Shown: in pieces, positions 5,873 to 27,362 of the stretch | Position numbering within the stretch: position 1 is the first letter of the stretch | How the letters are laid out: every line of letters starts with the position of its first letter | Origin: an uncultured virus (IMG/VR IMGVR_UViG_3300013382_000009) | Taxonomy: Duplodnaviria; Heunggongvirae; Uroviricota; Caudoviricetes | IMG/VR virus record: IMGVR_UViG_3300013382_000009 | DNA length: 64,000 nucleotides | Reading direction: 5' to 3' (one strand) | The notes under the pieces: model-generated | What the model saw: only the letters and a program-made list of their open reading frames with translations | Databases searched by the model: none | What the model was told of the DNA's origin: nothing | Made by a program: the position numbers and the translations under genes

Positions 5873-6244
5873 TTAACCATTACTGCCTCCTTTCTGCTCT
5901 AGTAAATCATCAAGATAACACCATTTATTTATTTCCCACAATTCGACTTCATGATTCCAATCTTGATAGTCAGACTCCAAGTAATAAATTATATGGTCTT
6001 TATCTCCACCAATAACAAGTACGGATGCCTTGTTTCTTGGTTCTTCACTATCATCATGCCACAGTTCTTTTAAAAACTGTTCGATAGCCCAGTGAGCACC
6101 AGCTTGAAATGAACATTCTCTTATTACCGAATTAGCATAAAGTTCTCCACTAGTTTGCTTTCTACGCAACACTTTCTTCAACTCGTTTTCTACTTTCTTG
6201 TTGTATTCTTTGGCAGCTTCTATTGCCTTCTTATCTAAATCCAT
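5873..6244 (-). CDS. DUF551-like phage protein
   Basis: LWHDDSEEP...INKWCYLDDLL. Confidence 0.55.
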   Translation of the reverse strand: MDLDKKAIEAAKEYNKKVENELKKVLRRKQTSGELYANSVIRECSFQAGAHWAIEQFLKELWHDDSEEPRNKASVLVIGGDKDHIIYYLESDYQDWNHEVELWEINKWCYLDDLLEQKGGSNG

Positions 6245-13659: not shown

Positions 13660-14129
13660 AAGCTATCTTTTAGTTTCTTTACTTCTTCCTCATAATGCTT
13701 GATGAGCATCTGCAATTCAAACAGAGACCATTTCTTTGTTTCAAATCTACGAGATTCTAACAAATCAACTTGCTGTTCTCCGTATTTTTTAACCATCCAC
13801 TTTCTGTACTCTAGCATATTTCCGTCTAAGTACCGATTACAGTACCTACAGCCTATGTGGCAATTCGTTTCCGACCATCGCAAAGCCATACAAGACCTTT
13901 TTATGTAATGCGCACAGTCAGCTTGCTCGAATGGTTTCACCTTTCCGCAAGTTGGGCATCTAAAATACTCAAAATTATATTCCTTGCTATCACGAAGACG
14001 TATAAATTCCGAGAACACAGAATCAAGTTTGCGAATAAGCGTAGGCTTGCTAAGTCCTGCTCTGGCTGCTTTCTTCTCCCAAGGAGCTTTCTCTTTCTTA
14101 TCTTTCTTTGGTTTCTTCTTCCAAAACAT
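13656..14129 (-). CDS. NinG/Rap-family recombination endonuclease
   Basis: LDSVFSEFIRLRD, CPTCG, DCAHY, NCHIGCRYCN. Confidence 0.85.
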   Translation of the reverse strand: MFWKKKPKKDKKEKAPWEKKAARAGLSKPTLIRKLDSVFSEFIRLRDSKEYNFEYFRCPTCGKVKPFEQADCAHYIKRSCMALRWSETNCHIGCRYCNRYLDGNMLEYRKWMVKKYGEQQVDLLESRRFETKKWSLFELQMLIKHYEEEVKKLKDSL

Positions 14130-14131
14130 AT

Positions 14132-14326
14132 CTATTCTTCTTTTTGGATTTCACTACTTCGGATTGCCTTCCTTATGCTGTTAATCTTAGAGTTGAGGAT
14201 GGAGATCCGTCTATAACATAGCTCGAAGTGCTCTAGTGGACACCAAGGGTTTCTTTCGAGCTGCTTGTATATGTCGTACACCCTTTGCCGATATGAGGCT
14301 AGGGTGGTCTTTGTTAAGTCTATCAT
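14132..14326 (-). CDS. hypothetical protein
   Basis: 64-aa first ORF after the ncRNA-rich leader. Confidence 0.55.
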   Translation of the reverse strand: MIDLTKTTLASYRQRVYDIYKQLERNPWCPLEHFELCYRRISILNSKINSIRKAIRSSEIQKEE

Positions 14327-14357
14327 ATTGTATAATTGTTTACAGATTTATTTAAAT

Positions 14358-14383
14358 CCTGCCTATCCTCACGGACTGGCAGG
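14358..14383 (-). repeat. GUGA-loop hairpin, copy 1 of 3 (others 15060-15086, 15177-15204)
   Basis: CCTGCC-AG-TCC-GTGA-GGA-TA-GGCAGG on minus strand. Confidence 0.7.
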
Positions 14384-14457
14384 GAGTTGCTTTTTCAAAT
14401 TCAAAATTATGAATTGCTGTGCCGCTGCACATAGCTTCTATGCGTGTAATGAGATAG

Positions 14458-14567
14458 TCCTCGCAGTTGGACTTGAACCAACGACCAAGTTGCACGGTTT
14501 GATAAGAATGCGTTAAGGATTTACACCTCTGTTACGTGCTTGCTCTAACCAACTGAGCTATGCGAGG
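14458..14567 (-). ncRNA. tRNA-like RNA with 38-nt expanded anticodon loop
   Basis: acceptor CCTCGCA/TGCGAGG, TAGCTCAGTTGGTTAGAGC D-arm, GTTGG-TTCAAGT-CCAAC T-arm; GCACG/CGTGC stem closes a 38-nt loop. Confidence 0.8.
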
Positions 14568-14569
14568 AA

Positions 14570-14619
14570 TGTTGAGGGCATCGTGCGCAACCACGAATTT
14601 AAGAGCCATGCTCACCCTC
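14570..14619 (-). ncRNA. candidate mini tRNA-like element
   Basis: GAGGGTG/TGCCCTC (7 bp, two G-U) stacked on TCGTG/CACGA hairpin; abuts the tRNA-like gene. Confidence 0.4.
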
Positions 14620-14621
14620 CT

Positions 14622-14693
14622 TTATCTACAATAGTAGAAATTTTCAGAAAATGCAAAAGTAGTATATCAGTTATCTACTATAGTAGAAATTTT
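14622..14693 (-). promoter_or_regulatory. leftward promoter flanked by two palindromic operators
   Basis: TACTTTTG (minus strand, 14654-14661) between two 23-bp repeats carrying TCTAC(A/T)ATAGTAGA. Confidence 0.7.
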
Positions 14694-14982
14694 GATTATG
14701 GCTAAACAATCAACATTCACTCTACTTGCACTCTGCATTTCTGAATATATTGTAAGGACTTAATAACTTCTCTTTTTTCCAATGTGTCAAAGAACACTGC
14801 TATTGCTAGCTTAGATTGTTACTGATGCACTATATATAATAAGGTGTAAGGTAAAAGGTGTTGGTAGAATGTTCGCCCACAACATTTCCTTATGATTTAG
14901 GGTTTCCCCATGGACTTTATCGCAGCTTTTGTCACCCCAACCGAACGAGATATTATAATAACAATTCACCAATAACGAATAG

Positions 14983-15054
14983 TGGGAAGTAGAGGAGTTG
15001 AACCTCTGTAGCTTAGCGAACCGCACAGCATCCTAACCGTTAGATGAACTTCCC
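14983..15054 (-). tRNA. degenerate tRNA / tRNA-like RNA (anticodon undetermined)
   Basis: GGGAAGT/ACTTCCC acceptor, ATCTAACGGTTAGGAT D-arm, AGAGG-TTCAACT-CCTCT T-arm; anticodon stem has two mismatches and no U33. Confidence 0.7.
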
Positions 15055-15261
15055 GATAACTCTCCTATCTGTCACAGACGAGAGAGTGATATGAATCAAC
15101 GTAAGCACCGCTGTGCCATTAAATCTATAGAAATACTTATATATTTTACTAACATTCATGTAGTTTCTTTTCAAGACCTCTCCCATCCTCACGGACAGGA
15201 GAGGGATAACGCTTTAATATGAATTTTACCTAAAAGCTAACATATAGCTTTTCACCTTATT

Positions 15262-15465
15262 TTATCTAACTAATTTCTGCTCTTTAACCTTGACACCCCC
15301 AAAGCGATTGAGGGCTACGTTTCTGATGTCGCCAGCCTTCTTGCTATTGGTTCGGAAGGATAATGCATTGTACACTGCCGCTTGACCACAGCCGATAACT
15401 GCCATTATTTTAGAAATTTTGTCTCTTTCGACTAAAATTCTTTCTGTTTTTACTATTTTATTCAT
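15262..15465 (-). CDS. Cro-like HTH protein
   Basis: 67 aa, IMAVIGCGQAAVYNAL HTH-like; divergent from repressor. Confidence 0.7.
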   Translation of the reverse strand: MNKIVKTERILVERDKISKIMAVIGCGQAAVYNALSFRTNSKKAGDIRNVALNRFGGVKVKEQKLVR

Positions 15466-15475
15466 AACTTTTTAT

Positions 15476-15572
15476 TATATTTGCACACGAAATAATATTA
15501 TCAGATGGTTACGAGAACCATTTACGAGTGCAAAGATACATATTTGTAGGCAAACGCCCAAGTTTGTAGGCA
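15476..15572. promoter_or_regulatory. face-to-face promoters of the immunity switch
   Basis: plus-strand TATATTTG 15476-15483; minus-strand TATCTTTG 15531-15538; TTTGTAGGCA direct repeat at 15543 and 15563. Confidence 0.65.
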
Positions 15573-15621
15573 TTCTTTTATAATTACTTAGTATATTTAC
15601 ACATTTATAAACACTAGCGTT

Positions 15622-16014
15622 ATGGAAGGACTAAAGGAACGTATCAATGAGATAAAGGACTATTACAGACTGTCTAACAGAGGGTTTGCTGCTGCTCTAG
15701 GCACAAAACCTGCTGCAACCAACAACTATCTCAACGGAACAAAAGAGCCATCACTAGATTTCGTGGATGCAATTTTGTCTAAGTACGTGGACATTTCTGC
15801 GGAATGGCTCTTGCGTGGCAAAGGAAGTATGTTTTGCGATGACAAGCCAACAGACGAGGAAGTAACTAAAGAATTGGCTGATGCCAAGGTGAAGATGCTT
15901 GTAAAGGATGGGATCATCAAGGAACTAAAAGATTTGATTCTCGAAAAGAACAGTGGTAAGAAGACGAGCAAGGACGAGATTGTCACACAGAAGTGGGAAG
16001 AAAAGTTCGGATAA
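15622..16014 (+). CDS. CI-like XRE repressor
   Basis: LSNRGFAAALGTKPAATNNYLNGTKEPS...ISAEWLLRGKGSM; C-terminal coiled coil. Confidence 0.85.
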   Translation: MEGLKERINEIKDYYRLSNRGFAAALGTKPAATNNYLNGTKEPSLDFVDAILSKYVDISAEWLLRGKGSMFCDDKPTDEEVTKELADAKVKMLVKDGIIKELKDLILEKNSGKKTSKDEIVTQKWEEKFG

Positions 16015-16031
16015 TACCACTTGTACCAAAC

Positions 16032-16062
16032 AAAAAAGGAGGGCACTAGGCTCTCCTTTTTT
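16032..16062. terminator. bidirectional terminator
   Basis: AAAAAAGGAGGGC-ACTAG-GCTCTCCTTTTTT between convergent genes. Confidence 0.8.
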
Positions 16063-16411
16063 ATTCAAAATGAAACTTTGACGGATTATAAGGTATGTCT
16101 GGGATTTTCCCTCGAAAATACTGCTCCTTCTCTTTGAGTTCAGCAAGCATTTCTTCCTCATCCTTTCTGCGAGTCAGCCACGACGACATTCTCTCGTTGA
16201 GCATTCTCTTATATTCAGCGGCACACTTATATGTGGCTTTGACCTTCCATTTTGTGCTTCTCCCTTGGATAGACCAAGAATGGACCTCTCGGACATTGTA
16301 TCTTCCATCTGTATTTGTTGTATGTTGCTGTACGCTATGAGTTATACCACACTTTGCTGCCTTCTTTAGCTTGCGAGGAATGCGCTGTTTATATTTCTTA
16401 TATAGCTTCAT
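16061..16411 (-). CDS. hypothetical phage protein
   Basis: RIPRKLKK motif; packed operon. Confidence 0.6.
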   Translation of the reverse strand: MKLYKKYKQRIPRKLKKAAKCGITHSVQQHTTNTDGRYNVREVHSWSIQGRSTKWKVKATYKCAAEYKRMLNERMSSWLTRRKDEEEMLAELKEKEQYFRGKIPDIPYNPSKFHFE

Positions 16412-16791
16412 CGCTCACCTCCTTTCGGCAATAAATCTTTGATGTAAGCCCATCTTTGGATTATCTCTGATGGAGAAATAGGTTTCCAACCACTTCTAGC
16501 GAGTTTGTTTCTATCGCTCACGCTGGCGGCTCTATAATATATAGGTGGATTTCTCACGGCATTAGGGACAAACTCAAACAGAACGTGCTCGGTTAAGTCT
16601 GGCTTTTCCGTTTTTGCATCGTGCCATACTTGGCTAAGGTCGGTGTATTCGACTTCCTCCTCTAGGATAGACTTCGTTTTGGCATGAGTAAGATGTGGCG
16701 AATAGCACTCGGTATCAACCGATACCAAATCGCTGACCTCGCCCAATCGTTCTGCGCTCTTTTGACGGATATAAATCTTCTTTGGTATCAT
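16408..16791 (-). CDS. DUF551-like phage protein
   Basis: VWHDAKTEKP...IQRWAYIKDLLP. Confidence 0.55.
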   Translation of the reverse strand: MIPKKIYIRQKSAERLGEVSDLVSVDTECYSPHLTHAKTKSILEEEVEYTDLSQVWHDAKTEKPDLTEHVLFEFVPNAVRNPPIYYRAASVSDRNKLARSGWKPISPSEIIQRWAYIKDLLPKGGER

Positions 16792-16792
16792 T

Positions 16793-17092
16793 CTAGACCT
16801 CCTTTCTTACGTATTCAATATCCTTGTATGATATTCGCTCCTTGCTCCACGTTACCTCGTCAAGTTCATTGAAGTCGGCACCATCGGGTGTGTCTTCTCC
16901 AATTACCAAGAAGATACGATCAGGAACGTTCTCCATTTCGTTCTCTCCCTCAAACTCTCGAATGGTGGCGTCTAGGAGGTCGTATATTTTTTCGACATCA
17001 CCTTCAAACAGGAGTGGTTTTACCTTGCCATTCCAATTCTTAAGTTTCTTCCTAGCCTCCTTCCATGCTTCGTAAGTCTCTTGTGTAATCAT
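16793..17092 (-). CDS. hypothetical phage protein
   Basis: PDRIFL...EVTWSKERI...DIEYVR. Confidence 0.65.
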   Translation of the reverse strand: MITQETYEAWKEARKKLKNWNGKVKPLLFEGDVEKIYDLLDATIREFEGENEMENVPDRIFLVIGEDTPDGADFNELDEVTWSKERISYKDIEYVRKEV

Positions 17093-17103
17093 AAGCTATA
17101 ATA

Positions 17104-17346
17104 TTAAAACTTTATATTTTCCTTCCACCACTCTAGCGTAGTCGGAAACTTCGGTTTCGTCTTTTTGTAATGTCTAAAACGCATAATCTTCCAATATGCA
17201 TTGATGAAATTTTTGCAAGGTTTACCTGTGTCAAAGCAACTAAAATTACATCGGATATTACGTTTGCTATCATACATCATGATGTACACATAGCAATTAT
17301 CCGACCACGATTCTTTCTTGTAATGCTTTTCTTCCCTCTTGCCCAT
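17104..17346 (-). CDS. hypothetical protein
   Basis: ORF from ATG MGKREEK, 5 bp after upstream stop. Confidence 0.5.
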   Translation of the reverse strand: MGKREEKHYKKESWSDNCYVYIMMYDSKRNIRCNFSCFDTGKPCKNFINAYWKIMRFRHYKKTKPKFPTTLEWWKENIKF

Positions 17347-17350
17347 ACTG

Positions 17351-17995
17351 CTATATCTTTTTGTTTGTTGCAATCTCGGATATACGTCTTACCTTCTCTA
17401 TAGTCTTTCTTGGAGGGAAAAAACGATTCTCTAATTCGCTTGCGGCTATATCTGACAAAGAGAGGATTCTGTTCAAGCACAGAGTGAGTTGATTGCGCTT
17501 TCTCTCGCTCTCAGCGAACTTACCTTTATACTCGTCACGTAACTTTGCATTCTCTTCTTCCAATTTCTTCTTGTTGGATTCTTCGAGTTCCTCTTTCTTC
17601 TTGTCGAGTTCCTTGCTTTTCTTTTGGAAGTCGGCATCAAGAAGACTATACTTCTCTAAATATTTCTCGTAAGCGGCTTTATTAGCCTTGATGCTATCCT
17701 CAACCTCCTTACGCATTTGGTTCTCCACCTTCAAACGGACATCTTCGAAGTTGATGTAGGATTCAGAGGATTCTACTGTTCGTCTTCTTATCTTTGGTTC
17801 GTGTTCAAAACCATTTCGCTCTAATCTGGAAATAATGTCCTCACACTCCACCACAGTCTCCTTTCGAAGAATAACCTTGGCATCATTCTTCAAAGATTCG
17901 TTGAGTTTCTTCAACTCCTTAACCTGCTCTTCCAACTCCTTGTTACGATTGCGGATTGCATCGTACTCTGACAAATCTACATTTACTACTGCCAT
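17351..17995 (-). CDS. coiled-coil hypothetical protein
   Basis: 214 aa, K/E-rich heptads. Confidence 0.7.
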   Translation of the reverse strand: MAVVNVDLSEYDAIRNRNKELEEQVKELKKLNESLKNDAKVILRKETVVECEDIISRLERNGFEHEPKIRRRTVESSESYINFEDVRLKVENQMRKEVEDSIKANKAAYEKYLEKYSLLDADFQKKSKELDKKKEELEESNKKKLEEENAKLRDEYKGKFAESERKRNQLTLCLNRILSLSDIAASELENRFFPPRKTIEKVRRISEIATNKKI

Positions 17996-18118
17996 AATCT
18001 CAATCTGTTACTAGTTTGTTTATGTATTTTCGCCACTCATAGTAGGAAAGTGGCATTCCTTTTCCGTAACCTATCTTGTATCGTTTGTAGCTTTTGTATG
18101 CTTTCAGCTTAATCTGCT

Positions 18119-18433
18119 CTAGTTCGTCCATAGGCTACGACTTTTCTTGATTCGCTCCTTGGCTTCCTTTATAAAAGGATGATTCCCACTAATACCACAT
18201 TCTTTTTTGAATCTCTTCAACTCATTGAGGTTTCTGCACTCGTCAGGTGACTGAATTGCAAACACATACTTTTGCTGCATACGGAAGAAATGAAGCCCAG
18301 AAAGCTTTGTCGTATCAGTTATTAAACTATGCCACTTCTCTCTTTCATTGCGGTCTGTACGATATTCATACCTTGCTCTATCTGTCAGCATACTACAAAC
18401 GAGCATATCGAAAGTTCTCTTCTTCTTTTTCAT
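18119..18433 (-). CDS. hypothetical protein
   Basis: ORF from ATG MKKKKRT. Confidence 0.5.
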   Translation of the reverse strand: MKKKKRTFDMLVCSMLTDRARYEYRTDRNEREKWHSLITDTTKLSGLHFFRMQQKYVFAIQSPDECRNLNELKRFKKECGISGNHPFIKEAKERIKKSRSLWTN

Positions 18434-18476
18434 AAAAATCAAGTTAAGCCCCCCTCCGAAGAGAGGGCGGTTAATT

Positions 18477-19265
18477 TTACTTTACCATCATTATTTGTGG
18501 TACATTACCATATACGGGCAACTTCCCATCCCATTTCTCAATCCACATCTTTTGCAAGATTGCAGGGGTGAGCGATGCGGTCTTCAACTCGTTGGCTTCA
18601 CGTTCTGCCTTGGCTTGCACAAGCATCTTTTCGGCTTCGGCTTTCTTGACGGCAACCTCATTGAGTGCTCTCTGTGCTTCTTGGATTGCCTTGTTCTTCT
18701 GATTGACGGCTTCGACAATAGAACTTGGGTACTTCAAGCCAGAAGTAAGCTGCTCTAGATGGAAGTGTTCCTTGGCAAGAGCCTTGCTAAGTTGGGCTTC
18801 GATTGCTTTCTCCACCAAATCACGATTGCTTACGATTTGGTCGGTGGTATATTTGTTCAGCTGAATGCGGAAGGCATCCTTCACGTAGTTGAACAAAGTA
18901 CCATTGATGATGTCCTTCAACTCCTTACGGTACTTCTTGAATACCTTTGGTGCATTTCCATCCACCATTTTGAGCGACACGGTAGGGTCAACAGTAAACT
19001 CTGAACCATCCTTGGCATTGATGGTGAAAGGTGGATAGTCGATGGTCTGCACGAATGTTGGGTACTCGTAAACCTCTTCCGTGAAAGGATTGTACCAAAC
19101 ACGACCTGTGACAAGGCTCACATCATCCACACCTTTGTCAGAGCCATAAAGGTTGACCAAGATACCCTCAGAACCTGCATCTACACGCTCGCTGCATGAA
19201 GTGGTTGAAAAGAATGCTGCTCCAAGCAGCGTTACCAAAAACAAACGATTAATTTTTCTGTTCAT
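18477..19265 (-). CDS. SPFH/band-7 (prohibitin-like) protein, probable lipoprotein
   Basis: signal with TTSC lipobox, RVDAGSEGILVNLYG, coiled coil, WIEKWDGKLP. Confidence 0.9.
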   Translation of the reverse strand: MNRKINRLFLVTLLGAAFFSTTSCSERVDAGSEGILVNLYGSDKGVDDVSLVTGRVWYNPFTEEVYEYPTFVQTIDYPPFTINAKDGSEFTVDPTVSLKMVDGNAPKVFKKYRKELKDIINGTLFNYVKDAFRIQLNKYTTDQIVSNRDLVEKAIEAQLSKALAKEHFHLEQLTSGLKYPSSIVEAVNQKNKAIQEAQRALNEVAVKKAEAEKMLVQAKAEREANELKTASLTPAILQKMWIEKWDGKLPVYGNVPQIMMVK

Positions 19266-19458
19266 CTTTCTTGTTATTTTTGAATGTTAAACAATTTGTT
19301 GCGATTGAGAACAATATCCATAGGGTGAACGCTATCACTCCAATAATGTTCAAGGTGGTGTCTGCCTTGCTGACAGCCCTAAGACTTAGGCTAAGAATCA
19401 TAAGCGTTGAGAGTAGCCAAACAACAAACAACATCACTTTCCATTTGATTTTCTTCAT
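19249..19458 (-). CDS. two-TM membrane protein coupled to SPFH gene
   Basis: two hydrophobic helices; overlaps SPFH start. Confidence 0.65.
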   Translation of the reverse strand: MKKIKWKVMLFVVWLLSTLMILSLSLRAVSKADTTLNIIGVIAFTLWILFSIATNCLTFKNNKKDEQKN

Positions 19459-19472
19459 AATTCAAAGTATTT

Positions 19473-20183
19473 TTATAATTGTTTCTTCTTTAGTCTTTCG
19501 TAAACCTCTAGAATCTCCTTATCGGATAGAGGTTCTTCGTCTAGTCTATACTGGAAGAACTTGACCTTTGTGATAGCAGACACCGCATATTCCTGCGCTA
19601 GCTTCGCTATCCCATTGAGTGTGCCGGTCTTCTTGTAAACATCAATGACATCACGGATATACTTGATGAATTGTTGCTTCTGATACTCTGCTACGTTGAC
19701 AGGTGCTTGTTGAGAGCGAGTAATAACAATCTTTTCATCGCTACCTTGGTTAAGACAATCCTCGCCACGTTTTGAGATGTTCATGCAATCACAGAACTCA
19801 TCTGCCCTTGTATATGCGCTACAGAGTGCGCCACGGAGAGAATCAAGCATATTCTTAAGTTTGATGTTCTCATCGGCAAGTCTATTCAACTTAACAGCCT
19901 TCTCCTTGATGTACTCTTGGCTATTATTGAAGGCTGCTTGCAGCTTTTCGTACCTATTGTTTAAATTATCGAACTTGGCACGGATTTTTTCTCCGTTCCA
20001 CTTCTTCGGCAAGATTTCCTTTCTCTCGGAATAGGTTGCAAGCATATTCTTGTACAAGGTTTCTTGCTTATCCAACTTGGACTTCAAGTCCTCGTTCTCT
20101 TTTTTGAGGGTGTCACGTTCCGCCTTGACCTTATCGTAGTTCTTCAAGACGATGTTCAACTCCTCTTCCTTTGTTCTTTCCAT
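19473..20183 (-). CDS. coiled-coil hypothetical protein
   Basis: 236 aa, heptad-rich. Confidence 0.7.
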   Translation of the reverse strand: MERTKEEELNIVLKNYDKVKAERDTLKKENEDLKSKLDKQETLYKNMLATYSERKEILPKKWNGEKIRAKFDNLNNRYEKLQAAFNNSQEYIKEKAVKLNRLADENIKLKNMLDSLRGALCSAYTRADEFCDCMNISKRGEDCLNQGSDEKIVITRSQQAPVNVAEYQKQQFIKYIRDVIDVYKKTGTLNGIAKLAQEYAVSAITKVKFFQYRLDEEPLSDKEILEVYERLKKKQL

Positions 20184-20196
20184 AAACTCTATAAGT

Positions 20197-20403
20197 TTAA
20201 TATGATTTTCTATGTTTTCTTAAGACCGAGCCATTATAGGCAGCAGCGAGTGCTTGCCAACTTTTAGGTTTTTTGCCTTTTTTAGTCAAGAAATGCGCTC
20301 TGAACATTTCCATCCAAACTTCTTCTCTGTAATCTTTCCAACCTTTGTAGTCGCAATAGTCGTTGAACTCCTTGCGCGTAGGTATATAATTTAATTTATT
20401 CAT
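20197..20403 (-). CDS. small replication-initiator-C-terminal-like protein
   Basis: PTRKEFNDYC...GKKPKSWQALA resembles initiator C-terminal modules. Confidence 0.45.
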   Translation of the reverse strand: MNKLNYIPTRKEFNDYCDYKGWKDYREEVWMEMFRAHFLTKKGKKPKSWQALAAAYNGSVLRKHRKSY

Positions 20404-20750
20404 AACGATATATTTTTTTTATTTTTAAACCTGCCAACTTAGATTCGCACGTGGGTATAAAGTCCCCTTTAGCGAAAGTGCAAGAATTTCCGTCTTACCA
20501 ATCGCCGCAGGGTTCTCTCTTTCTGCCGAACTTGAGTTCATGCTTTCGAGGGATGCGCAACCAAAGCATGGCGCAACACTTCACTGATTCAAGATGCTTC
20601 TTGGTGCAAGTCTCAGCTAGACTTCTCTGCTATCGCACTGTCCCCCACCTTTCGGTGCCCGCTTATGCAGCCTTGGTTGCAGAGTTTTAGATGATAGCCA
20701 AAATGACTATGGTGTAACTATCAAATATCATTATCCCAACAAAGGGAATG

Positions 20751-20875
20751 CAAAAATCCCCAAAGTTGTGTTGCGACCAACTAAGGGGATTCATATATAT
20801 ATCGTTACCTATTGAAGGCTACAATAATTTTCAATATCTTCTTGTGTCAATCGCAACTTGACGAGTGCAAAAGTA
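20751..20875 (-). promoter_or_regulatory. promoter plus kissing-loop attenuator
   Basis: minus-strand TACTTTTG; 5' hairpin loop GTTGCGA complementary to TCGCAAC in loop of a terminator hairpin followed by TTTTT. Confidence 0.6.
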
Positions 20876-20984
20876 ATACGATTTTCGGTAACCTCCAAAT
20901 TGCTTTAAGGTCAGTTAAGATTTAGAAAAGGTCTAAATATCAAAGAAAAGTACCCAAAAATTTGTGTTATAAAAAAGTTATCAT

Positions 20985-20992
20985 TATCTTTG
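20985..20992 (+). promoter_or_regulatory. promoter toward integrase
   Basis: TATCTTTG with TTTG at 20961-20964 (20-bp spacer). Confidence 0.6.
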
Positions 20993-21110
20993 CAGTGAAA
21001 AAGGAAATTACTGAATTGCAGCTTGTTAGAAAATTTCAAGTATGACCCCTAAGGGTGTACTACTATAGCAAAAGAATGACGCTTTAAAATGAATTTTTCT
21101 AAAAGGAATA

Positions 21111-21325
21111 TAGCTGTAATCATCTAGTTAATAGATAGTTACAGCTACATTTGTTTTCACGAGTTGATAACATATTGATAACATCGAAAGAAATAACGTT
21201 ACGATAACGTTATACGTTGGTATCTTTACAACTTGTTGATAACCAAACATTTCAGCTTTTCCCAACAAATGTTAAACAAAAGTGTGTTATGACTATGTTA
21301 TCAACCACTTGTAAAGATGTTATCA
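21111..21325. repeat. att-like region with TGATAAC repeats and inverted repeats
   Basis: TAGCTGTAA/TTACAGCTA hairpin 21111-21147; 22-bp imperfect inverted repeat 21222-21243/21297-21318; several GATAAC/GTTATC copies. Confidence 0.65.
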
Positions 21326-21329
21326 CAAA

Positions 21330-22466
21330 ATGGGGAAAATTAATTTAAGTATTATTCACAATCGGTTGAAGCGTGGAACGGCTCAAAAGCCTGTTTCGGT
21401 GGAATTAAGGTTCACTTGTGGGGGTAAGCGTAAGTATATCTCCACTGGGGTGAAAGTATGCCCTTCGCAATGGTCTGAGGGTAGTAAGCATGTTATCAGA
21501 TGCAAGGATGCCGAGGTTTTCAACAAGCAAATTGATGCCTTCGTGGATAGAGCAAACGAGGTTATCGCCAAGATGATTGCCAAAGGCTCTACAGACCTAG
21601 AGGAGATTCCTGCACTGATGGATGGCTGCTCCAATAAGTTTGCTGACTTCATCACCTACTGCGAGGAACGTACCAAGCAACGCAAAGTGAGCGACCACAC
21701 CAAGCGAAGATACAAGGTCTTCACCGACTTCTTGAAGAAATGGGGAAAGATTAAGGAGTTCTCCGATGTCAACGTATCTAACGTGCGTGCTCTGGACGAA
21801 TACTTGCACTCCAAGGGATTAGAACAGAGTACTGTCTATTGCTACCACAAGTATCTTAAGCTATTCGTGCGTGATGCGTGCATTGATGAGCTTGTGGAGA
21901 AGAATCCGTATAACTACCTACCTTTCAAGATTGGCAAAGGAGACAAGGAATTTGTGGATTGTCTGCCTATCGAAAAGTTCGAGAGTATCAAGCGATTGCA
22001 CCTAGAAGTGGACTATCTCGTCAAGGCTAGGGATTTGTTCTTGATGCAGTGTTACACTGGGTTGGCTTACTCCGACCTTATGGCTTTCGATTTCAGCGAG
22101 TGCGAGGAATCGGGCGGCAAATACTATTACCACGGCAAGCGAGTGAAGACTGACACGGATTTCACCTTCCAGCTATTGGGCGGTGCGGTTGCCATCCTAA
22201 AGAAGTACGACTTTCGATTGCCCTCTATCAGCAATCAGAAGTACAACGAGTATCTGAAAGCTATCGGTGCCATTGTTGGTGTGCCCAAGCTGCATAGTCA
22301 CATGGGCAGGGCTACGGCTGCTACGCTCTTCCTCTCGTTCGGGATGCCCATCAACGTGGTGGCAAAGGTGCTCGGGCATACCAACATCAGGCAGACACAA
22401 AGATACGCTCGTACGCTCAATCGTGATGTTTATTCGGCATTTGATAACATCGAAGGCAAGATTTGA
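21330..22466 (+). CDS. int: tyrosine recombinase/integrase, Bacteroidetes type
   Basis: N-terminal arm-binding domain (RKYISTGVKVCPSQW), SAM-like domain, CYTGLAYSD, K, HMGR, LGH, TQRY. Confidence 0.95.
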   Translation: MGKINLSIIHNRLKRGTAQKPVSVELRFTCGGKRKYISTGVKVCPSQWSEGSKHVIRCKDAEVFNKQIDAFVDRANEVIAKMIAKGSTDLEEIPALMDGCSNKFADFITYCEERTKQRKVSDHTKRRYKVFTDFLKKWGKIKEFSDVNVSNVRALDEYLHSKGLEQSTVYCYHKYLKLFVRDACIDELVEKNPYNYLPFKIGKGDKEFVDCLPIEKFESIKRLHLEVDYLVKARDLFLMQCYTGLAYSDLMAFDFSECEESGGKYYYHGKRVKTDTDFTFQLLGGAVAILKKYDFRLPSISNQKYNEYLKAIGAIVGVPKLHSHMGRATAATLFLSFGMPINVVAKVLGHTNIRQTQRYARTLNRDVYSAFDNIEGKI

Positions 22467-22521
22467 TAACATATCTGATAACATAACGCTAGATAACTAG
22501 CTTATTCTATGCGTGTTATCA
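22441..22521. repeat. TGATAAC repeat cluster at integrase 3' end
   Basis: GATAAC x4 plus GTTATC; TTGATAACATCGAA and TTGATAACATAT match upstream copies exactly. Confidence 0.7.
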
Positions 22522-22540
22522 AGAACTGACAAAAACGACT

Positions 22541-22568
22541 AAAGGGTAGCCATCACTGACTACCCTTT
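22541..22568. terminator. bidirectional terminator
   Basis: AAAGGGTAG...CTACCCTTT between convergent genes. Confidence 0.7.
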
Positions 22569-22969
22569 TCTTCTTGTTGTTGGTCTCGCTCTCGTTTCTC
22601 CCTTATGGCTTGTCTTATCCACTCGGGTCTCTTGTTGCCCATAGCGTCTAGGAAATCATACATTTCCTCGTTAACGTGGATTACCACTCGGTTTACTAGG
22701 GCTTCCTTGCCCTTGCCTTTCCATCCTGCTCCCTCTCTGTAACCTCCCCACCCTGGGTGCAGGTTCTTCGCTTGCACCACCTTGCCTTTTCTCGTAAGGT
22801 TAAGGCGGAAGATAAGCTTCTGACCATTGTACACCTCGGCATACTGGGCATCGGGTGTTGTCTGTAGCGCATTTTCGGCTACTGCCTTTATCTGCTCTTT
22901 CTTGTCGCTCAACATTTCCGTCTCGTCCAAGATGCACAAATCATCATATACTACGATTCTCGCTCTCAT
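22553..22969 (-). CDS. putative DNA-binding protein (GGxRxGAG motif, RHH-like C-terminus)
   Basis: GWGGYREGAGWK followed by VVIHVNEEMYDFL...WIRQAIREK. Confidence 0.6.
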   Translation of the reverse strand: MRARIVVYDDLCILDETEMLSDKKEQIKAVAENALQTTPDAQYAEVYNGQKLIFRLNLTRKGKVVQAKNLHPGWGGYREGAGWKGKGKEALVNRVVIHVNEEMYDFLDAMGNKRPEWIRQAIREKRERDQQQEEKGSQ

Positions 22970-23076
22970 AGCTTTCAGAAAATTGTGGGGAGTCGGTTAC
23001 ACTCCCCATTACCTTTTAACTCAATATTCCTACAATAATGCTGAAAAAGAAGATTATCAGCACAAACCATTCCTGC

Positions 23077-23352
23077 TTACTCATTATTGTTACCTCCTTC
23101 CTGCTCAGTCAGTGAAACAATATCGTTAACGCTCTCGTCCTCGGTGAAGAAAGAAACCGACATATCCTCGTTGAGATAAGCCATTGCCACAACTTCTTTA
23201 TGCGAGTTCTTGATGATACAAACATCACCCATTATCTCGCTCTGTCCCTTTAGGTAGCGGATTGCGGTCTCCTTGATTGCCAAAGGATTCAACTTCTTCG
23301 TTGTCACGTCTCCACTCATTGGGAAGACAAACTTAAACTCTTGCTTCTTCAT
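23077..23352 (-). CDS. hypothetical early protein
   Basis: 91-aa ORF in packed leftward array. Confidence 0.6.
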   Translation of the reverse strand: MKKQEFKFVFPMSGDVTTKKLNPLAIKETAIRYLKGQSEIMGDVCIIKNSHKEVVAMAYLNEDMSVSFFTEDESVNDIVSLTEQEGGNNNE

Positions 23353-23723
23353 ACTGCATCCTCCATTGGTTTATATCTGAATATAAAATCAACTGCTAGG
23401 TTGTCGTGGTCAACTTCGACATAAGCATAGCGGTTGAAGTCTTTCTTGTCACTCTCCTCGAAGTCTAGCGTACCATCTTGAAGCAACTTTCTATAAAGAA
23501 CGTTTACCCACTCCTTTCTTGGTATTTTCTTTTTCCCTTTCTCACGAACAAAAACAGACACCATAAAAGTGAAAAACTTGACTTCGCAAAGTGCATCATC
23601 AATGTAGCCACAATATCGCCCCTGCTCATCACTGGCACACTGGGAGAAGTGTTCTCCGAGCAAGCGAGAGACGATGAGCTTCTTATCGTCCTCGCTGAAA
23701 TCGTAATTAACTATTCTACTCAT
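23349..23723 (-). CDS. hypothetical early protein
   Basis: 124-aa ORF overlapping neighbours. Confidence 0.6.
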   Translation of the reverse strand: MSRIVNYDFSEDDKKLIVSRLLGEHFSQCASDEQGRYCGYIDDALCEVKFFTFMVSVFVREKGKKKIPRKEWVNVLYRKLLQDGTLDFEESDKKDFNRYAYVEVDHDNLAVDFIFRYKPMEDAV

Positions 23724-23997
23724 ATCTTTTCTTTACTTTAGAATCATCGCCCAAACCTTTTGCCAGTATCACACCTGTTTCGATTCCTTGAAGATAGGTT
23801 TCTGCATCCTCGAAATTCATGTAGGTGCAAGAACTCAATCCGTCCTCGAAGATGTCAACACACTCGGATTCGTACCCCTCAGTGCTCTCTATCTCGAAGC
23901 ATTCTCTTGAAAGGTGCTCGTTGATGTTGTTGACAAGTGCATTCAGATAGTCAATATCTCGCTTGTCCGCACCCATATTCTCGTTGTAATCAATCAT
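23716..23997 (-). CDS. acidic hypothetical early protein
   Basis: 93 aa, D/E-rich. Confidence 0.6.
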   Translation of the reverse strand: MIDYNENMGADKRDIDYLNALVNNINEHLSRECFEIESTEGYESECVDIFEDGLSSCTYMNFEDAETYLQGIETGVILAKGLGDDSKVKKRYE

Positions 23998-24268
23998 GAT
24001 CCACCTCCTTTTCTGTAATCAACAACTCCTCGAACACTGGGAAGTCGGTTACTTGGATTCCCCAGTTCTCGATATTGTTCTCTCCGTACTCCTCAACGTC
24101 CTCGCCCTCGTACTCGTCGGCATAGAAAGCTTTGATGCTCTCTTTCTCCTCTGCCATCTTCTCCTTGGCTGCGGTCTTGGTGGAATACACTCCCACAACC
24201 TCGAACGTGTCTTGGTCTTGGTTGTCTCGACCTTGCTTGGTCAACACAAATACTTTCATTGTTCTCAT
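23990..24268 (-). CDS. acidic hypothetical early protein
   Basis: KVFVL...VVGVYSTKTAA motif; strongly acidic C-terminal half. Confidence 0.6.
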   Translation of the reverse strand: MRTMKVFVLTKQGRDNQDQDTFEVVGVYSTKTAAKEKMAEEKESIKAFYADEYEGEDVEEYGENNIENWGIQVTDFPVFEELLITEKEVDHD

Positions 24269-24468
24269 TGTTGCTTGTCTCCTATGTTTGATTAATAAAA
24301 TATCAACTGGCTCTGCAAGTCTTCGCAATACTGCTCTGCGTATGCTCTTGCATCACTCTCACTTGCGCCGCTATTCATTGCAGCGTAATAGGCATCGTTG
24401 TAGATGTCGTGCATTACTTCACTCATTGTGTAAATCCTTTCTTTAAATCGTTAAACTTATTCTTATCT

Positions 24469-24526
24469 TGGTGGGCTGCCAGTCTCTGCCACTGGCTCGG
24501 TGGCTGTCTTGCGATTCCACTAGCCC
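24469..24526 (-). ncRNA. candidate tRNA-shaped element ending in ACCA
   Basis: GGGCT/AGCCC closing stem stacked on GCCAGT-GGCAGAG-ACTGGC, internal GTGG/CCAC arm, 3' ACCA. Confidence 0.45.
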
Positions 24527-24721
24527 TATATTAAGCAACAACAATTATTTCTATCTGATAGGCTGCAATACTCTAGCCTTTGGAACGTTCTTGCCATTCA
24601 GTAAGTAATTCACTCTGTGCGGCTCTCTCTGCTTCACAAACGTCTCCTTGACCAAATATCTGCGGTTCAAGTGGTCTGCGATGGTCGCTCCCTTGAAACA
24701 TTTCTCCAGTATTATCATAAC

Positions 24722-25363
24722 TTAGCCCTCCATCAAATGTTTAACAAGTTCATCCTTGGTGGCGAAGATTTCGTTAAAGCCATAAGCGATGTACTGGTTG
24801 CCTACGTTCAACAACACTTGGTTGTCGTTTAGTGCTCGCTTTAGCTTGTCCTCTAGTATTCCTCTATTATCAAAACAATAATAGTTGGTGAAATTAGGGT
24901 TGATGCCACTGGCTACAATGTGGAATACATCTTCACCTAAATCTCTAGACTTGTAATCAGCGAAGAATTTGTTATTGTCCGCTGAGCGTGTCAAAGTCAA
25001 GTGAACAATCTTACCTTCAATAATCTTGTTATTTCTCATTGCGTACACTTTCTGACCGATATAAAAGTCGGTCTGCAAGGTTATAGCTGCCCTTGGCACA
25101 ACTTGTACTTTGTCCGTGTCTAGCCAAAAACCTGCAACCAAAGTATTTCCATGTGCTATGTCTTGGGCGATTCTGTCAAACACCTCCTTGTCGGTTGGCT
25201 CTCTATCGAAATACTCTCCGTTCTCGTCCTCTTCCTCAATATCGTAAGTGTATTCGTATCCGTCCTTGTCTGTGATAACAAGTCCGCATGCTTGCGCCTT
25301 TACCACATCTTGGATGGTTGTTACCTCGAAACCTACAAAATTTCCTACTGCTATTGTATTCAT
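24722..25363 (-). CDS. hypothetical early protein
   Basis: 213 aa; C-terminal part resembles 10301-10510. Confidence 0.7.
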   Translation of the reverse strand: MNTIAVGNFVGFEVTTIQDVVKAQACGLVITDKDGYEYTYDIEEEDENGEYFDREPTDKEVFDRIAQDIAHGNTLVAGFWLDTDKVQVVPRAAITLQTDFYIGQKVYAMRNNKIIEGKIVHLTLTRSADNNKFFADYKSRDLGEDVFHIVASGINPNFTNYYCFDNRGILEDKLKRALNDNQVLLNVGNQYIAYGFNEIFATKDELVKHLMEG

Positions 25364-25393
25364 ATCTTATTCTCCTATAATTTAAATTGTTCG

Positions 25394-25585
25394 TTACTTG
25401 CTATTGTTCATTGGTTTGATTTCTCCGTGCTTGACTGCATCCTCGTAAAACTCTTGTGTTAGAAGATTCTGTGAGCCATAATAGCGGAAAATCGTGTCTA
25501 GCGCTTGCTCTGTTGGCATTCCTAGTAATACACCTTTCAAGTATCGGTGTATTGCTAGCTGCGTTTTCTTATCTTCTGTTCCCAT
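25394..25585 (-). CDS. hypothetical early protein
   Basis: 63-aa ORF in array. Confidence 0.55.
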   Translation of the reverse strand: MGTEDKKTQLAIHRYLKGVLLGMPTEQALDTIFRYYGSQNLLTQEFYEDAVKHGEIKPMNNSK

Positions 25586-25910
25586 AATTCACTCTTGCGT
25601 TATAAGTTCTTCCGATGATGTTATCTACCAGTGCTTGGCGCTCATAGTCGGTGCAGTCCGCAAAATCCGTCTGCTCCTCATAGAAACGTGCTGCGCTCTT
25701 CAATTCGTGAAGGCTCGCTTTGGTGAAGTCCTTGGCTGGGTTCAACTGGCGAAGACTCTCGCAAGTCTTGCAATACTCGATGAAGTCAACCAACTCCTTG
25801 CGCTCCGTCTCACGTGCGTGTGCGTGCGCATAACTGGCGATTGTTACCAAAGGTAGGATGGCTATTGCCATCACTACCAAAACTTTCTTAATGCTCTTTC
25901 TCATGCCCAT
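25569..25910 (-). CDS. secreted/membrane-anchored hypothetical protein
   Basis: basic N-terminus plus hydrophobic signal-like segment. Confidence 0.6.
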   Translation of the reverse strand: MGMRKSIKKVLVVMAIAILPLVTIASYAHAHARETERKELVDFIEYCKTCESLRQLNPAKDFTKASLHELKSAARFYEEQTDFADCTDYERQALVDNIIGRTYNARVNYGNRR

Positions 25911-26209
25911 TTAATTGTTGCTGATATTATTGAATTCATTTCTAACTTAACGACTAGATTGTTGTCGTGAGCGAGTTCTTTTACGAAATCTTTCAATCTC
26001 TTTTCCATTTCTCGCTTGTTGACATATCCCGAGAATAAGATATAAATCTGTCTCTCGTTCCAATAGTACTTTGCATTGGCAATAGTATTATTGATGTACC
26101 CGACAACTTCTGTTTTGTTCTTTTCCTTGGCGGTGTATTTTCCGCCATCATACAGAAGACTTGCCATTTGGTCGAAGTCTAGGAAATTACCTACATAATT
26201 TATCTTCAT
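25901..26209 (-). CDS. hypothetical early protein
   Basis: 102-aa ORF. Confidence 0.6.
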   Translation of the reverse strand: MKINYVGNFLDFDQMASLLYDGGKYTAKEKNKTEVVGYINNTIANAKYYWNERQIYILFSGYVNKREMEKRLKDFVKELAHDNNLVVKLEMNSIISATIKWA

Positions 26210-26213
26210 TGTC

Positions 26214-26399
26214 TTACGAATTAATCTTCTTGTTAAGTCTTAATAATGCTCTGTCTGTTTCCTCCGTAAATCGAACACTTGATTCTACAACTACATATTT
26301 GCCAGCTGCCTTGCGGTATCTGTGTTCCTTGTACGCTGCAAGGAGTATGGATATTGCGTTAAACTCCTTGTCTGTTAGTTCAATCTTAATTTTCTCCAT
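26214..26399 (-). CDS. hypothetical early protein
   Basis: KIELTDKEF N-terminus resembles 27082-27282. Confidence 0.55.
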   Translation of the reverse strand: MEKIKIELTDKEFNAISILLAAYKEHRYRKAAGKYVVVESSVRFTEETDRALLRLNKKINS

Positions 26400-26712
26400 A
26401 TGGCATTAATTTTATGTCTATATTGTAAGGAAGTGTGTGCATTGGCTTATCCTCCTCGTTGGTGTACTTGAAGAAGTTCTTCGATTGGTCTCCTCCAAAT
26501 TTATTAATGGTGGATTCTATCGTACCTTTGCATATCTGATGCGTTAGCTCAACACTCCAATAATGGTAAATCGAAGAAAGTTGAAACTCCATCTTGTCTA
26601 GTCTAGCCAGTGCAATAAGCCCGAAATCGGGATTTACGAACAACATGTTTTGACCTACGAAAATAGCGTCTATTCTGTTGGCTGCGTTCTTTGTTACTCT
26701 AATTACTTTCAT
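26386..26712 (-). CDS. hypothetical early protein
   Basis: 108-aa ORF with ACAAGACAATG start context. Confidence 0.6.
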   Translation of the reverse strand: MKVIRVTKNAANRIDAIFVGQNMLFVNPDFGLIALARLDKMEFQLSSIYHYWSVELTHQICKGTIESTINKFGGDQSKNFFKYTNEEDKPMHTLPYNIDIKLMPYGEN

Positions 26713-26731
26713 TGTCTTGTATTGTTTGCGT

Positions 26732-26776
26732 GGGGAGTGCGCTTGCGCACTGGGGGCGCTGCCCCCTTATCTCCCC
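26732..26776. repeat. GC-rich three-way-junction repeat, copy 1
   Basis: GGGGA-[GTGCGC TT GCGCAC]-T-[GGGGGC GCT GCCCCC]-TTATC-TCCCC. Confidence 0.85.
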
Positions 26777-26876
26777 ACTGGTTTATTACTCATCGGGCAA
26801 AGATTTTGCCTTTTCAATTCTGATACCTAGCAGTACCCCGAATAGTACTGCAACCACATAAGGTGCTATGTCCATA

Positions 26877-27065
26877 TTACTTGCCCTCCATCATCATTCG
26901 TTTGACTTCCTCGTAAGACTGGTTAACCAACATCTTGCGAGTTCCCTTGCTCTCTATTGGGTTTATGAATACTAGCATACATTCACCCTCAAATGGGTAT
27001 AAGTAAGCTAGATTACTGGTGTTCACAAGTCCTGTGATTCCACCGCTTGTAAGTTCGATAAACAT
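26877..27065 (-). CDS. small hypothetical protein
   Basis: MFIELT...LVNTSNL...VNQSYEEVKRMM. Confidence 0.55.
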   Translation of the reverse strand: MFIELTSGGITGLVNTSNLAYLYPFEGECMLVFINPIESKGTRKMLVNQSYEEVKRMMMEGK

Positions 27066-27081
27066 ATTCTGTTCCTTTCTT

Positions 27082-27282
27082 TTAAATTGTTCTGTATCCA
27101 CTAACTAACACTTTGTTGTACAAGTCGTAAATCTCATCGAAAACCTTTTGTGTTTGGATATGTATCTCACATTTACCCAAAAAGCCTTCCGTCTCGGATG
27201 TCTTCAAAGACTTTGTGGCGATACCCTCCAAGATGTCACGTAGTAGAAAATACTCGCTATCTGTTAGCTTGATATTCTTCAT
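27082..27282 (-). CDS. hypothetical early protein
   Basis: 66-aa ORF. Confidence 0.55.
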   Translation of the reverse strand: MKNIKLTDSEYFLLRDILEGIATKSLKTSETEGFLGKCEIHIQTQKVFDEIYDLYNKVLVSGYRTI

Positions 27283-27311
27283 TGTTGTTCCTTTCTTTTA
27301 ATTGTTATTAC

Positions 27312-27362
27312 TAGTGCGGTCTCACGGCTTGAACGTGAAGTGCTCCTCTATTCGCTGACCGC
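27312..27362 (-). ncRNA. mini tRNA-like element (acceptor stem plus T-arm)
   Basis: GCGGTC/GACCGC stem stacked on TCACG-TTCAAGC-CGTGA, 3' ACTA; intergenic. Confidence 0.6.

Follow-up and report, generated by a model that had tools for sequence, protein, structure and literature searches.

The DNA analyzed here is a stretch of 64,000 nt from an uncultured virus of the Caudoviricetes (IMG/VR record IMGVR_UViG_3300013382_000009; hereafter the window), which is a temperate phage or prophage; its gene products include an integrase (21330-22466), RecT, an SbcC-like protein, NinG and Ant. At the locus in question a small minus-strand gene in the cro position is faced by a divergent plus-strand gene for a helix-turn-helix (HTH) protein, a candidate cI-like repressor, and is directly followed by a non-coding stretch with the elements E2, E4 and E1 (Table 1). 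This stretch of about 830 nt, bracketed by E2 and the E4-E1 unit, is the first to be transcribed after the cro-position gene, and our analysis identifies it as an early, non-coding and conserved locus in Segatella phages, organized around two anticodon-less tRNA mimics, E1 and E2. Together with E3, which lies elsewhere in the window, these are conserved tRNA-shaped modules that are unable to decode, and the phages carrying them constitute a family of temperate phages of gut Segatella/Prevotella. A preliminary description of the same DNA had proposed a graded series of five non-decoding tRNA mimics; it gave correct coordinates and tails for all five elements (ACTA in E1, E2 and E3, ACCA in E5, AACA in E4), but as a series of mimics only E1, E2 and E3 stand, while E4 is a leader domain and E5 a structured element without a T-loop. 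Beyond that description lie the conserved sequence of the E1 loop, the fixed fusion of E4 to E1, the Cas12a repeat handles between the mimics and the position of the locus after the cro-position gene.

In E1 the acceptor is 7 bp long, a D-arm is present, the 'anticodon' stem of 5 bp closes a loop of 38 nt, the T-arm has the loop TTCAAGT, and the element ends in a discriminator A followed by CTA. It matches the Rfam tRNA family (RF00005) with 46.1 bits (gathering score 29), 51 nt replacing the 15-nt anticodon region in the Rfam alignment, and its minimum free energy (MFE) fold is the cloverleaf (z -2.26). In the virus record G001, the closest relative among the records compared, the E1 homologue is about 74% identical, with all stems changed in a compensated manner and the middle of the big loop unchanged. 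The locus set was composed of 70 viral loci with the exact E4 core and the window, that is 71 loci with 59 distinct E4-E1 units, which fall into about seven tRNA-body classes. Since the tRNA bodies were too divergent for MAFFT, a covariance model (R1) was built from nine seeds, and this model found E1 in all 71 sources, along with 11 E2-type elements. In the E1 alignment (A6, 54 distinct rows) 90.2% of the cells were paired, compared to 33-47% with the partner slid; both sides had changed in 17 of the 21 stem pairs, and the covariation score was 0.517 versus at most 0.098 in the slid controls. The insert is even more conserved than the tRNA body around it: the loop is near-identical in all 59 distinct units, its core is kept in every one of the 71 loci, and the exact core pattern was found in 17 viral loci and one Segatella metagenome-assembled genome, the single contig with the insert among the genomes being that of Candidatus Segatella violae. 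RNAalifold returned the cloverleaf for A6 and predicted no pairs inside the insert, which indicates that E1 is a tRNA scaffold displaying a conserved single-stranded sequence.

E2 likewise retains acceptor, D-arm and T-arm (loop TTCAACT), its anticodon arm being swapped for a short stem plus mini-hairpin. The Rfam match of the window E2 is weak (tRNA-Sec, 21.8 bits, E 2.4) and below the gathering score; three acceptor types of upstream mimics that were tested reached 45.7-50.5 bits with Rfam tRNA, a range that holds for E1 homologues as well. In 70 of the 71 loci a top half of the E2 type precedes E4 by 200-440 nt, and in the last locus the element was called by relaxed ARAGORN. These elements have at least six different acceptor sequences, and their anticodon arm is abnormal in every class inspected, taking the form of a 6-bp stem with a 5-, 6- or 8-nt loop, of a TTAG or GAAA tetraloop, or of a large replacement. 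With loops of 4-8 nt, tetraloops or inserts they do not offer the 7-nt loop, U33 and coherent anticodon that we took to define decoding, and an intact decoding counterpart was not seen in the 71 loci. In G001 (L087) the E2 homologue is 97% identical (alignment A1) and its tail is ACCA, as opposed to ACTA in the window, a full CCA end of E2 thus being one substitution away.

E3 has no D-arm and nevertheless keeps a T-loop of the pattern TTCRANN. Homologues were found in G001, G154, G155, G156 and G157, and none in G153. Acceptor and T-loop are invariant, whereas the T-stem exists in three fully complementary forms across the five phages, all 55 cells being paired and four of the five T-stem pairs changed on both sides. 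The MFE fold of E3 misses its own T-arm (z -1.86). Covariation in homologues, a point on which the preliminary description could have failed, is therefore present in both E1 and E3, and its claim that the mimics do not decode is borne out by the 38-nt loop of E1, the abnormal E2 arms and the missing anticodon arm of E3. Moreover, a descriptor of the stacked acceptor/T-arm (5-bp T-stem, TTCRANN loop and a directly stacked acceptor with at least 6 of 7 pairs) matched exactly E1, E2 and E3 on the minus strand and one site on the plus strand; on 30 shuffles it gave a mean of 0.67 matches with a maximum of 2. The plus-strand match (36956-37003, loop TTCAATA) lies within a giant open reading frame (ORF) and is conserved in G001 and G156, probably as coding sequence and not as an RNA element.

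E1 and E2 (7+5 bp) and E3 (6+5 bp) have the shape of an RNase P/RNase Z substrate, with direct coaxial stacking over about 12 bp, a T-loop and a single-stranded tail, while E5 (5+6 bp) has no T-loop and the stack of E4 is interrupted. The tails of the mimics consist of N73 and C74 and continue, in most of them, with a non-CCA end, and 21 of 24 distinct tRNA genes sampled in the host-genus genome G060 do not encode CCA either; from tRNA biology, RNase Z and the CCA-adding enzyme would thus see the mimics as ordinary pre-tRNAs of the host. The Rfam tRNA model did not match E3, E4 or E5, and no other Rfam family (GOLLD, ROOL, YrlA etc.) reached its gathering score in the window and five related loci.

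Table 1. Features of the mimic locus and of the second leftward operon (positions in the window).
Feature	Position	Strand	Basis or remarks
Downstream flanking hairpin, GUGA tetraloop	14358..14383	-	Hairpin kept in relatives
E1, tRNA-shaped RNA	14458..14567	-	Rfam tRNA match; covariance model; covariation
E1 loop/insert	14497..14534	-	Conserved cores 14512-14526 and 14498-14508; predicted single-stranded
E4, three-way-junction leader	14570..14619	-	Exact core in 70 viral loci; z -2.63; tail AACA
Cas12a (type V-A) CRISPR repeat 3' handle, copy 2	14624..14641	-	Identical to G060 array handle
Cas12a handle-like hairpin, copy 1	14673..14690	-	Loop ATA vs ATT; starts 49 nt upstream of copy 2
Middle module between E2 and E1	14857..14936	-	GGTGA..AAAG to ..CTACCAACACC; internal hairpins; blocks conserved in relatives
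E2, tRNA-shaped RNA	14983..15054	-	Cloverleaf MFE fold, z -2.22; tail ACTA
Upstream flanking hairpin, GUGA tetraloop	15177..15205	-	Sequence, motif YCGTGAGRA
cro-position small gene	15262..15465	-	phrog_16858; kept upstream of the non-coding locus in relatives
Divergent HTH gene, cI-like repressor candidate	15622..16014	+	Weak Pfam HTH_19 and HTH_3, both below cut-off
Candidate antisense target of the E1 loop	24424..24439	-	The 12 nt ahead of the start codon (ATG) of the gene that follows E5
E5, structured element	24469..24526	-	5-bp closing stem stacked on 6-bp hairpin, 7-nt loop, ACCA; z -2.19
E3, tRNA minihelix	27312..27362	-	6-bp acceptor stacked on 5-bp T-arm, loop TTCAAGC, then ACTA

E4 is located 2-6 nt upstream of E1 in every unit (2 nt in the window) and is paired in 99.7% of the cells of 56 distinct rows, three pairs being changed on both sides. 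The preliminary description had taken E4 for a tRNA top half; its 3' hairpin, however, stands 3 nt off the closing stem, and E4 is instead a conserved three-way-junction leader domain and not a tRNA mimic. The apical triloop of its first hairpin contains an ATG that opens an ORF of 27 codons (14526-14607, minus strand) running into E1. The N-terminal codons of this small ORF are conserved as E4 itself is, its frame and stop vary between classes, and the host phylum is independent of Shine-Dalgarno sites; we regard a coding function as less likely than an RNA structure.

E5 is also a structured element other than a tRNA mimic, its 7-nt loop not being T-loop-like. It is near-identical in G155 and G001; the G156 homologue, the only one that diverges, shows compensation in both the closing stem and the 3' hairpin as judged by eye. 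Both E3 and E5 sit between small genes of unknown function in a leftward operon separate from the E2/E4-E1 locus, at junctions followed downstream by different genes in different phages; of 22 small ORFs scanned from this operon and its neighbor, 21 had no PHROG match.

In addition to the mimics, the locus of the window holds two copies of a Cas12a repeat handle. The host-genus genome G060 has a 20-repeat array beside cas12a with a handle exactly equal to copy 2; among 151 host-genus genomes, 4 have cas12a (TIGR04330). The 19-nt handle was found exactly in at least 105 viral stretches, nearly always solitary (among 80 such stretches, 77 had one copy, two had two copies and one a true array of eight repeats). 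The two copies in the window, 49 nt apart and without array periodicity, are accordingly solitary phage copies of a host CRISPR repeat, as are the Racrs, which together with Cracrs have been validated experimentally as type V-A phage anti-CRISPR RNAs (PMC10651486; bioRxiv 10.1101/2024.10.29.618823). Unlike the units described in the available text of these sources, the handles in the window do not form a promoter-repeat-terminator unit but are embedded between two tRNA mimics, and this in only 11 of the 71 loci, at three different positions within the E2-E1 locus. The closest collinear relative (L205/L269) lacks both handles and is otherwise collinear with the window, so that the handles are insertions into an older locus, and the presence of the inter-handle sequence in the handle-less L205 argues against a dedicated Cracr spacer. 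Two further observations concern solitary handles and arrays in other viral contigs. One contig (L126) carries a true type V-A CRISPR array with eight handle copies at a period of 62-64 nt. In many unrelated contigs (L092, L098, L122, L134, L147, L154 and others) a hairpin ending in ..GTGGATTGAAAC stands about 14 nt upstream of the solitary handle, resembles a second, different CRISPR-repeat mimic and is accompanied by a short hairpin and terminator after the handle; to judge from sequence, such sets are possibly multi-type Racr units.

The account that we prefer, though tentatively and as a model, is that the mimics are RNase P/RNase Z processing signals and stabilizing scaffolds that would release small RNAs from the early transcript. 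What the analysis shows directly is how the elements fold, that the folds are conserved and the anticodon loops missing, that handle copy 2 is identical to a CRISPR repeat handle of the host genus, and where the locus lies; to this the account adds cleavage, stability and all effector roles, which we infer. The acceptor/T-arm stack would be recognized by host enzymes of tRNA maturation, with RNase P acting at the 5' end and, at the 3' end, RNase Z together with the CCA-adding enzyme, and stable small RNAs would be cut from the early transcript. One such product would be the E1 RNA, in which the scaffold would expose a conserved single strand of about 30 nt in place of the anticodon loop as the effector part. 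The stretch from E2 to E1 would serve as a cargo bay, filled with Racr-like Cas12a decoys in the window and 10 other phages, and E3 would provide the same punctuation between two small genes of the other leftward operon.

Several points weigh against this account. A6 was fitted to the model and includes 11 rows of the E2 type; likewise, part of the invariance of E4 arises by construction, since the E4 core was the pattern by which the loci were fetched. The acceptor of the largest E1 class counts only five pairs (33 of the 54 distinct rows have positions 6 and 7 unpaired), and its T-loop reads TCCGAAT, both of which could weaken recognition by RNase P and RNase Z in that class. Furthermore, as the handle is missing in 60 of the 71 loci, anti-CRISPR cargo cannot be the core function of the locus. 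Known Racrs function with their own promoter and terminator, and the word tRNA does not occur in the available text of either source on Racrs and Cracrs, supplements aside (PMC10651486; bioRxiv 10.1101/2024.10.29.618823).

The use of tRNA shapes as processing marks or enzyme handles is familiar from mitochondrial tRNA punctuation, mascRNA, the tRNA-like domain of tmRNA and the tRNA-like structures of plant viruses, which belong to other organisms and contexts and among which the mitochondrial tRNAs still decode, unlike E1-E3. The architecture is the same as in engineered tRNA scaffolds and polycistronic tRNA-guide arrays, in which an RNA in the anticodon arm or a tRNA-flanked cargo is presented to RNase P and RNase Z, but these are man-made. 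If the mimics are processed as proposed, the locus would therefore be a natural phage counterpart of such constructs. The bacterial Y RNAs of the YrlA type, some of them phage-borne, are non-coding and mimic the D- and T-arms of tRNAs without decoding (PMC4201824); unlike in E1-E3, their topology is permuted, both ends of the RNA lying in the Ro-binding stem. A literature search, in which subscription journals were poorly covered, returned no description of a locus like the present one, and to our knowledge the RNA biology of Bacteroidota phages is almost unknown. If correct, the proposed processing would represent a new route by which phages of Bacteroidota mature and stabilize regulatory or anti-defense RNAs, and RNA anti-CRISPRs, in the form of Cas12a repeat decoys, would be tied to tRNA-processing signals. 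Independently of function, E4-E1 is a conserved and testable non-coding RNA in at least 70 gut phage contigs that is absent from Rfam, and phage annotations of the type 'tRNA-like, no anticodon' can be selected elements and not just decay.

A more far-reaching version, which we consider rather doubtful, is that the locus is a tRNA-punctuated 'anti-defense RNA island', in which host tRNA maturation would cut several effector RNAs from one immediate-early transcript, the E1 loop would act as decoy or guide against a host immune or RNA-surveillance factor, and the bay would repeatedly capture CRISPR-repeat decoys.

Among known phage RNAs, C4 of P1/P7 and CI of P4 are antisense RNAs matured by RNase P. 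Like the proposed E1 RNA they are small RNAs cut from a longer early transcript by way of an acceptor feature that resembles tRNA; the loops that they expose are complementary to phage mRNA, and P1 C4 lies upstream of the antirepressor gene, an Ant gene being present downstream in the window as well. E1 differs from C4 and CI in its full cloverleaf with D- and T-arms, the insert in its anticodon loop, its fixed E4 leader and its Bacteroidota host, and both processing and target are putative. As a C4/CI-like regulator, E1 would repress the gene with the ATG at 24426 by pairing of its loop with the translation-initiation region of this gene, the tRNA body providing maturation and stability, an explanation that we judge to be unlikely. 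A 12-nt part of the loop is fully Watson-Crick complementary to 24428-24439, immediately ahead of this ATG; in G001 and G156 (different E1 body class) the complement is longer, its 15 nt extending as far as the AT of the start codon, and G155 keeps the site with one G.U pair. While the 15-nt match is rare (reached by 3 of 1000 shuffled loops in G156), the 12 nt in the window are common (192 of 1000), and if G.U pairs are allowed, shuffled loops always reach at least 12 nt. Moreover, only 9 nt of complement, at other genes, were found in G154 and G157, four of five further genomes lack the site outside E1 itself, and in the fifth (G159) the site is present but the loop has two uncompensated changes. 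The loop is conserved in all 71 loci regardless of the site, and the match was spotted post hoc. A second conserved block of the E1 loop has an 11-nt complement near the start of the cro-position gene in G153 (6029-6039) and G157 (623-633), which does not occur in the window.

It is quite unlikely that the mimics protect host or phage translation during infection as decoys or sponges of tRNA-binding or tRNA-attacking host factors, for which the candidates are toxins recognizing the acceptor or T-arm, tRNA-cleaving defense nucleases and tRNA quality-control enzymes. The parts read by proteins (acceptor, T-loop and discriminator-C) are kept and the decoding part is lost, as would be expected of such decoys, which would also be in keeping with the early position and with the CRISPR-repeat decoys in the same locus. 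However, bait for anticodon nucleases would require the anticodon loop that the mimics lack. The full 14-nt complement of the E1 loop was present in only 1 of 61 host-genus genomes, where it is the prophage E1 itself, a result that speaks only against a conserved antisense target in the host.

Conservation at the DNA level, as recombination linkers, attachment sites or promoters, is very improbable. Although E3 and E5 lie at junctions with differing downstream genes and intergenic DNA of the host contains a 19-nt motif of the locus as well, the compensatory pairs are strand-specific and include G.U, which is a signature of RNA structure, and the integrase is 7 kb away. We attach just as little probability to the view that the mimics are decaying tRNA genes, pseudogenes without a function of their own. 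Phages often carry tRNA genes, and the E2 types are tRNA-like except for the anticodon arm, but all stems are kept by compensatory changes, the insert is conserved beyond the tRNA body, six or seven independent body classes share the abnormality of the anticodon arm, and none of the 71 loci showed an intact counterpart. Ordinary intact tRNAs in homologues, which the preliminary description had named as a sign of simple decay, were not seen; the homologues keep the acceptor, the T-arm and mostly the D-arm with compensation, and E1, E2 and E3 are thus maintained by selection. Finally, it is scarcely credible that E1 is a genuine tRNA which decodes once a short intron has been removed. ARAGORN, which by default found no tRNA in the window, called E1 in intron mode as tRNA-Leu(caa) with a 31-nt intron, but the anticodon obtained in this mode differs by E1 class (UCA, CAA, AUC or AAA) and is thus not coherent, what adjoins the 5' strand of the stem is not a loop with U33, and the tRNA introns of bacteria, which have no splicing endonuclease, belong to the self-splicing group I type and measure about 200 nt or more. 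A suppressor tRNA is not needed either, since the standard code gives a good reading of the window, with one ORF of 6406 aa at 34294-53514 (plus strand), an unusual length given the size of the phage.

As for the surroundings of the mimics, the promoters upstream resemble what we take to be the Bacteroidota TAnnTTTG type, while scans of 14000-15600 for sigma-70 promoters and terminators yielded nothing above background. Searches with the window by megablast and blastn returned no similar phage record. The 80 loci taken as relatives by their NinG protein are too distant to carry the E2/E4-E1 locus, and ARAGORN found no tRNA in the 60 loci scanned (59 of them and one G001 locus). Within the middle module, an AAGGA block was considered as a pairing partner of the E1 insert and rejected, as the two do not covary. 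A conserved TCTTTGA..ATTGGAA block was likewise rejected as another CRISPR-repeat mimic, being found as single scattered copies (1-4 per genome) in 40 of 151 genus genomes and never in an array. The motif YCGTGAGRA of the hairpins flanking the locus occurs seven times versus 1.58 expected. The 19-nt motif mentioned above, at 14830-14848 on the minus strand and ending in ..TTATTATATATAG, recurs in intergenic DNA of the host genus (L343-L347) with 88-96% identity in 7 of 41 genomes, with unrelated flanks and often just after a terminator; a promoter, a recombination site and one end of a small mobile element are possible explanations.

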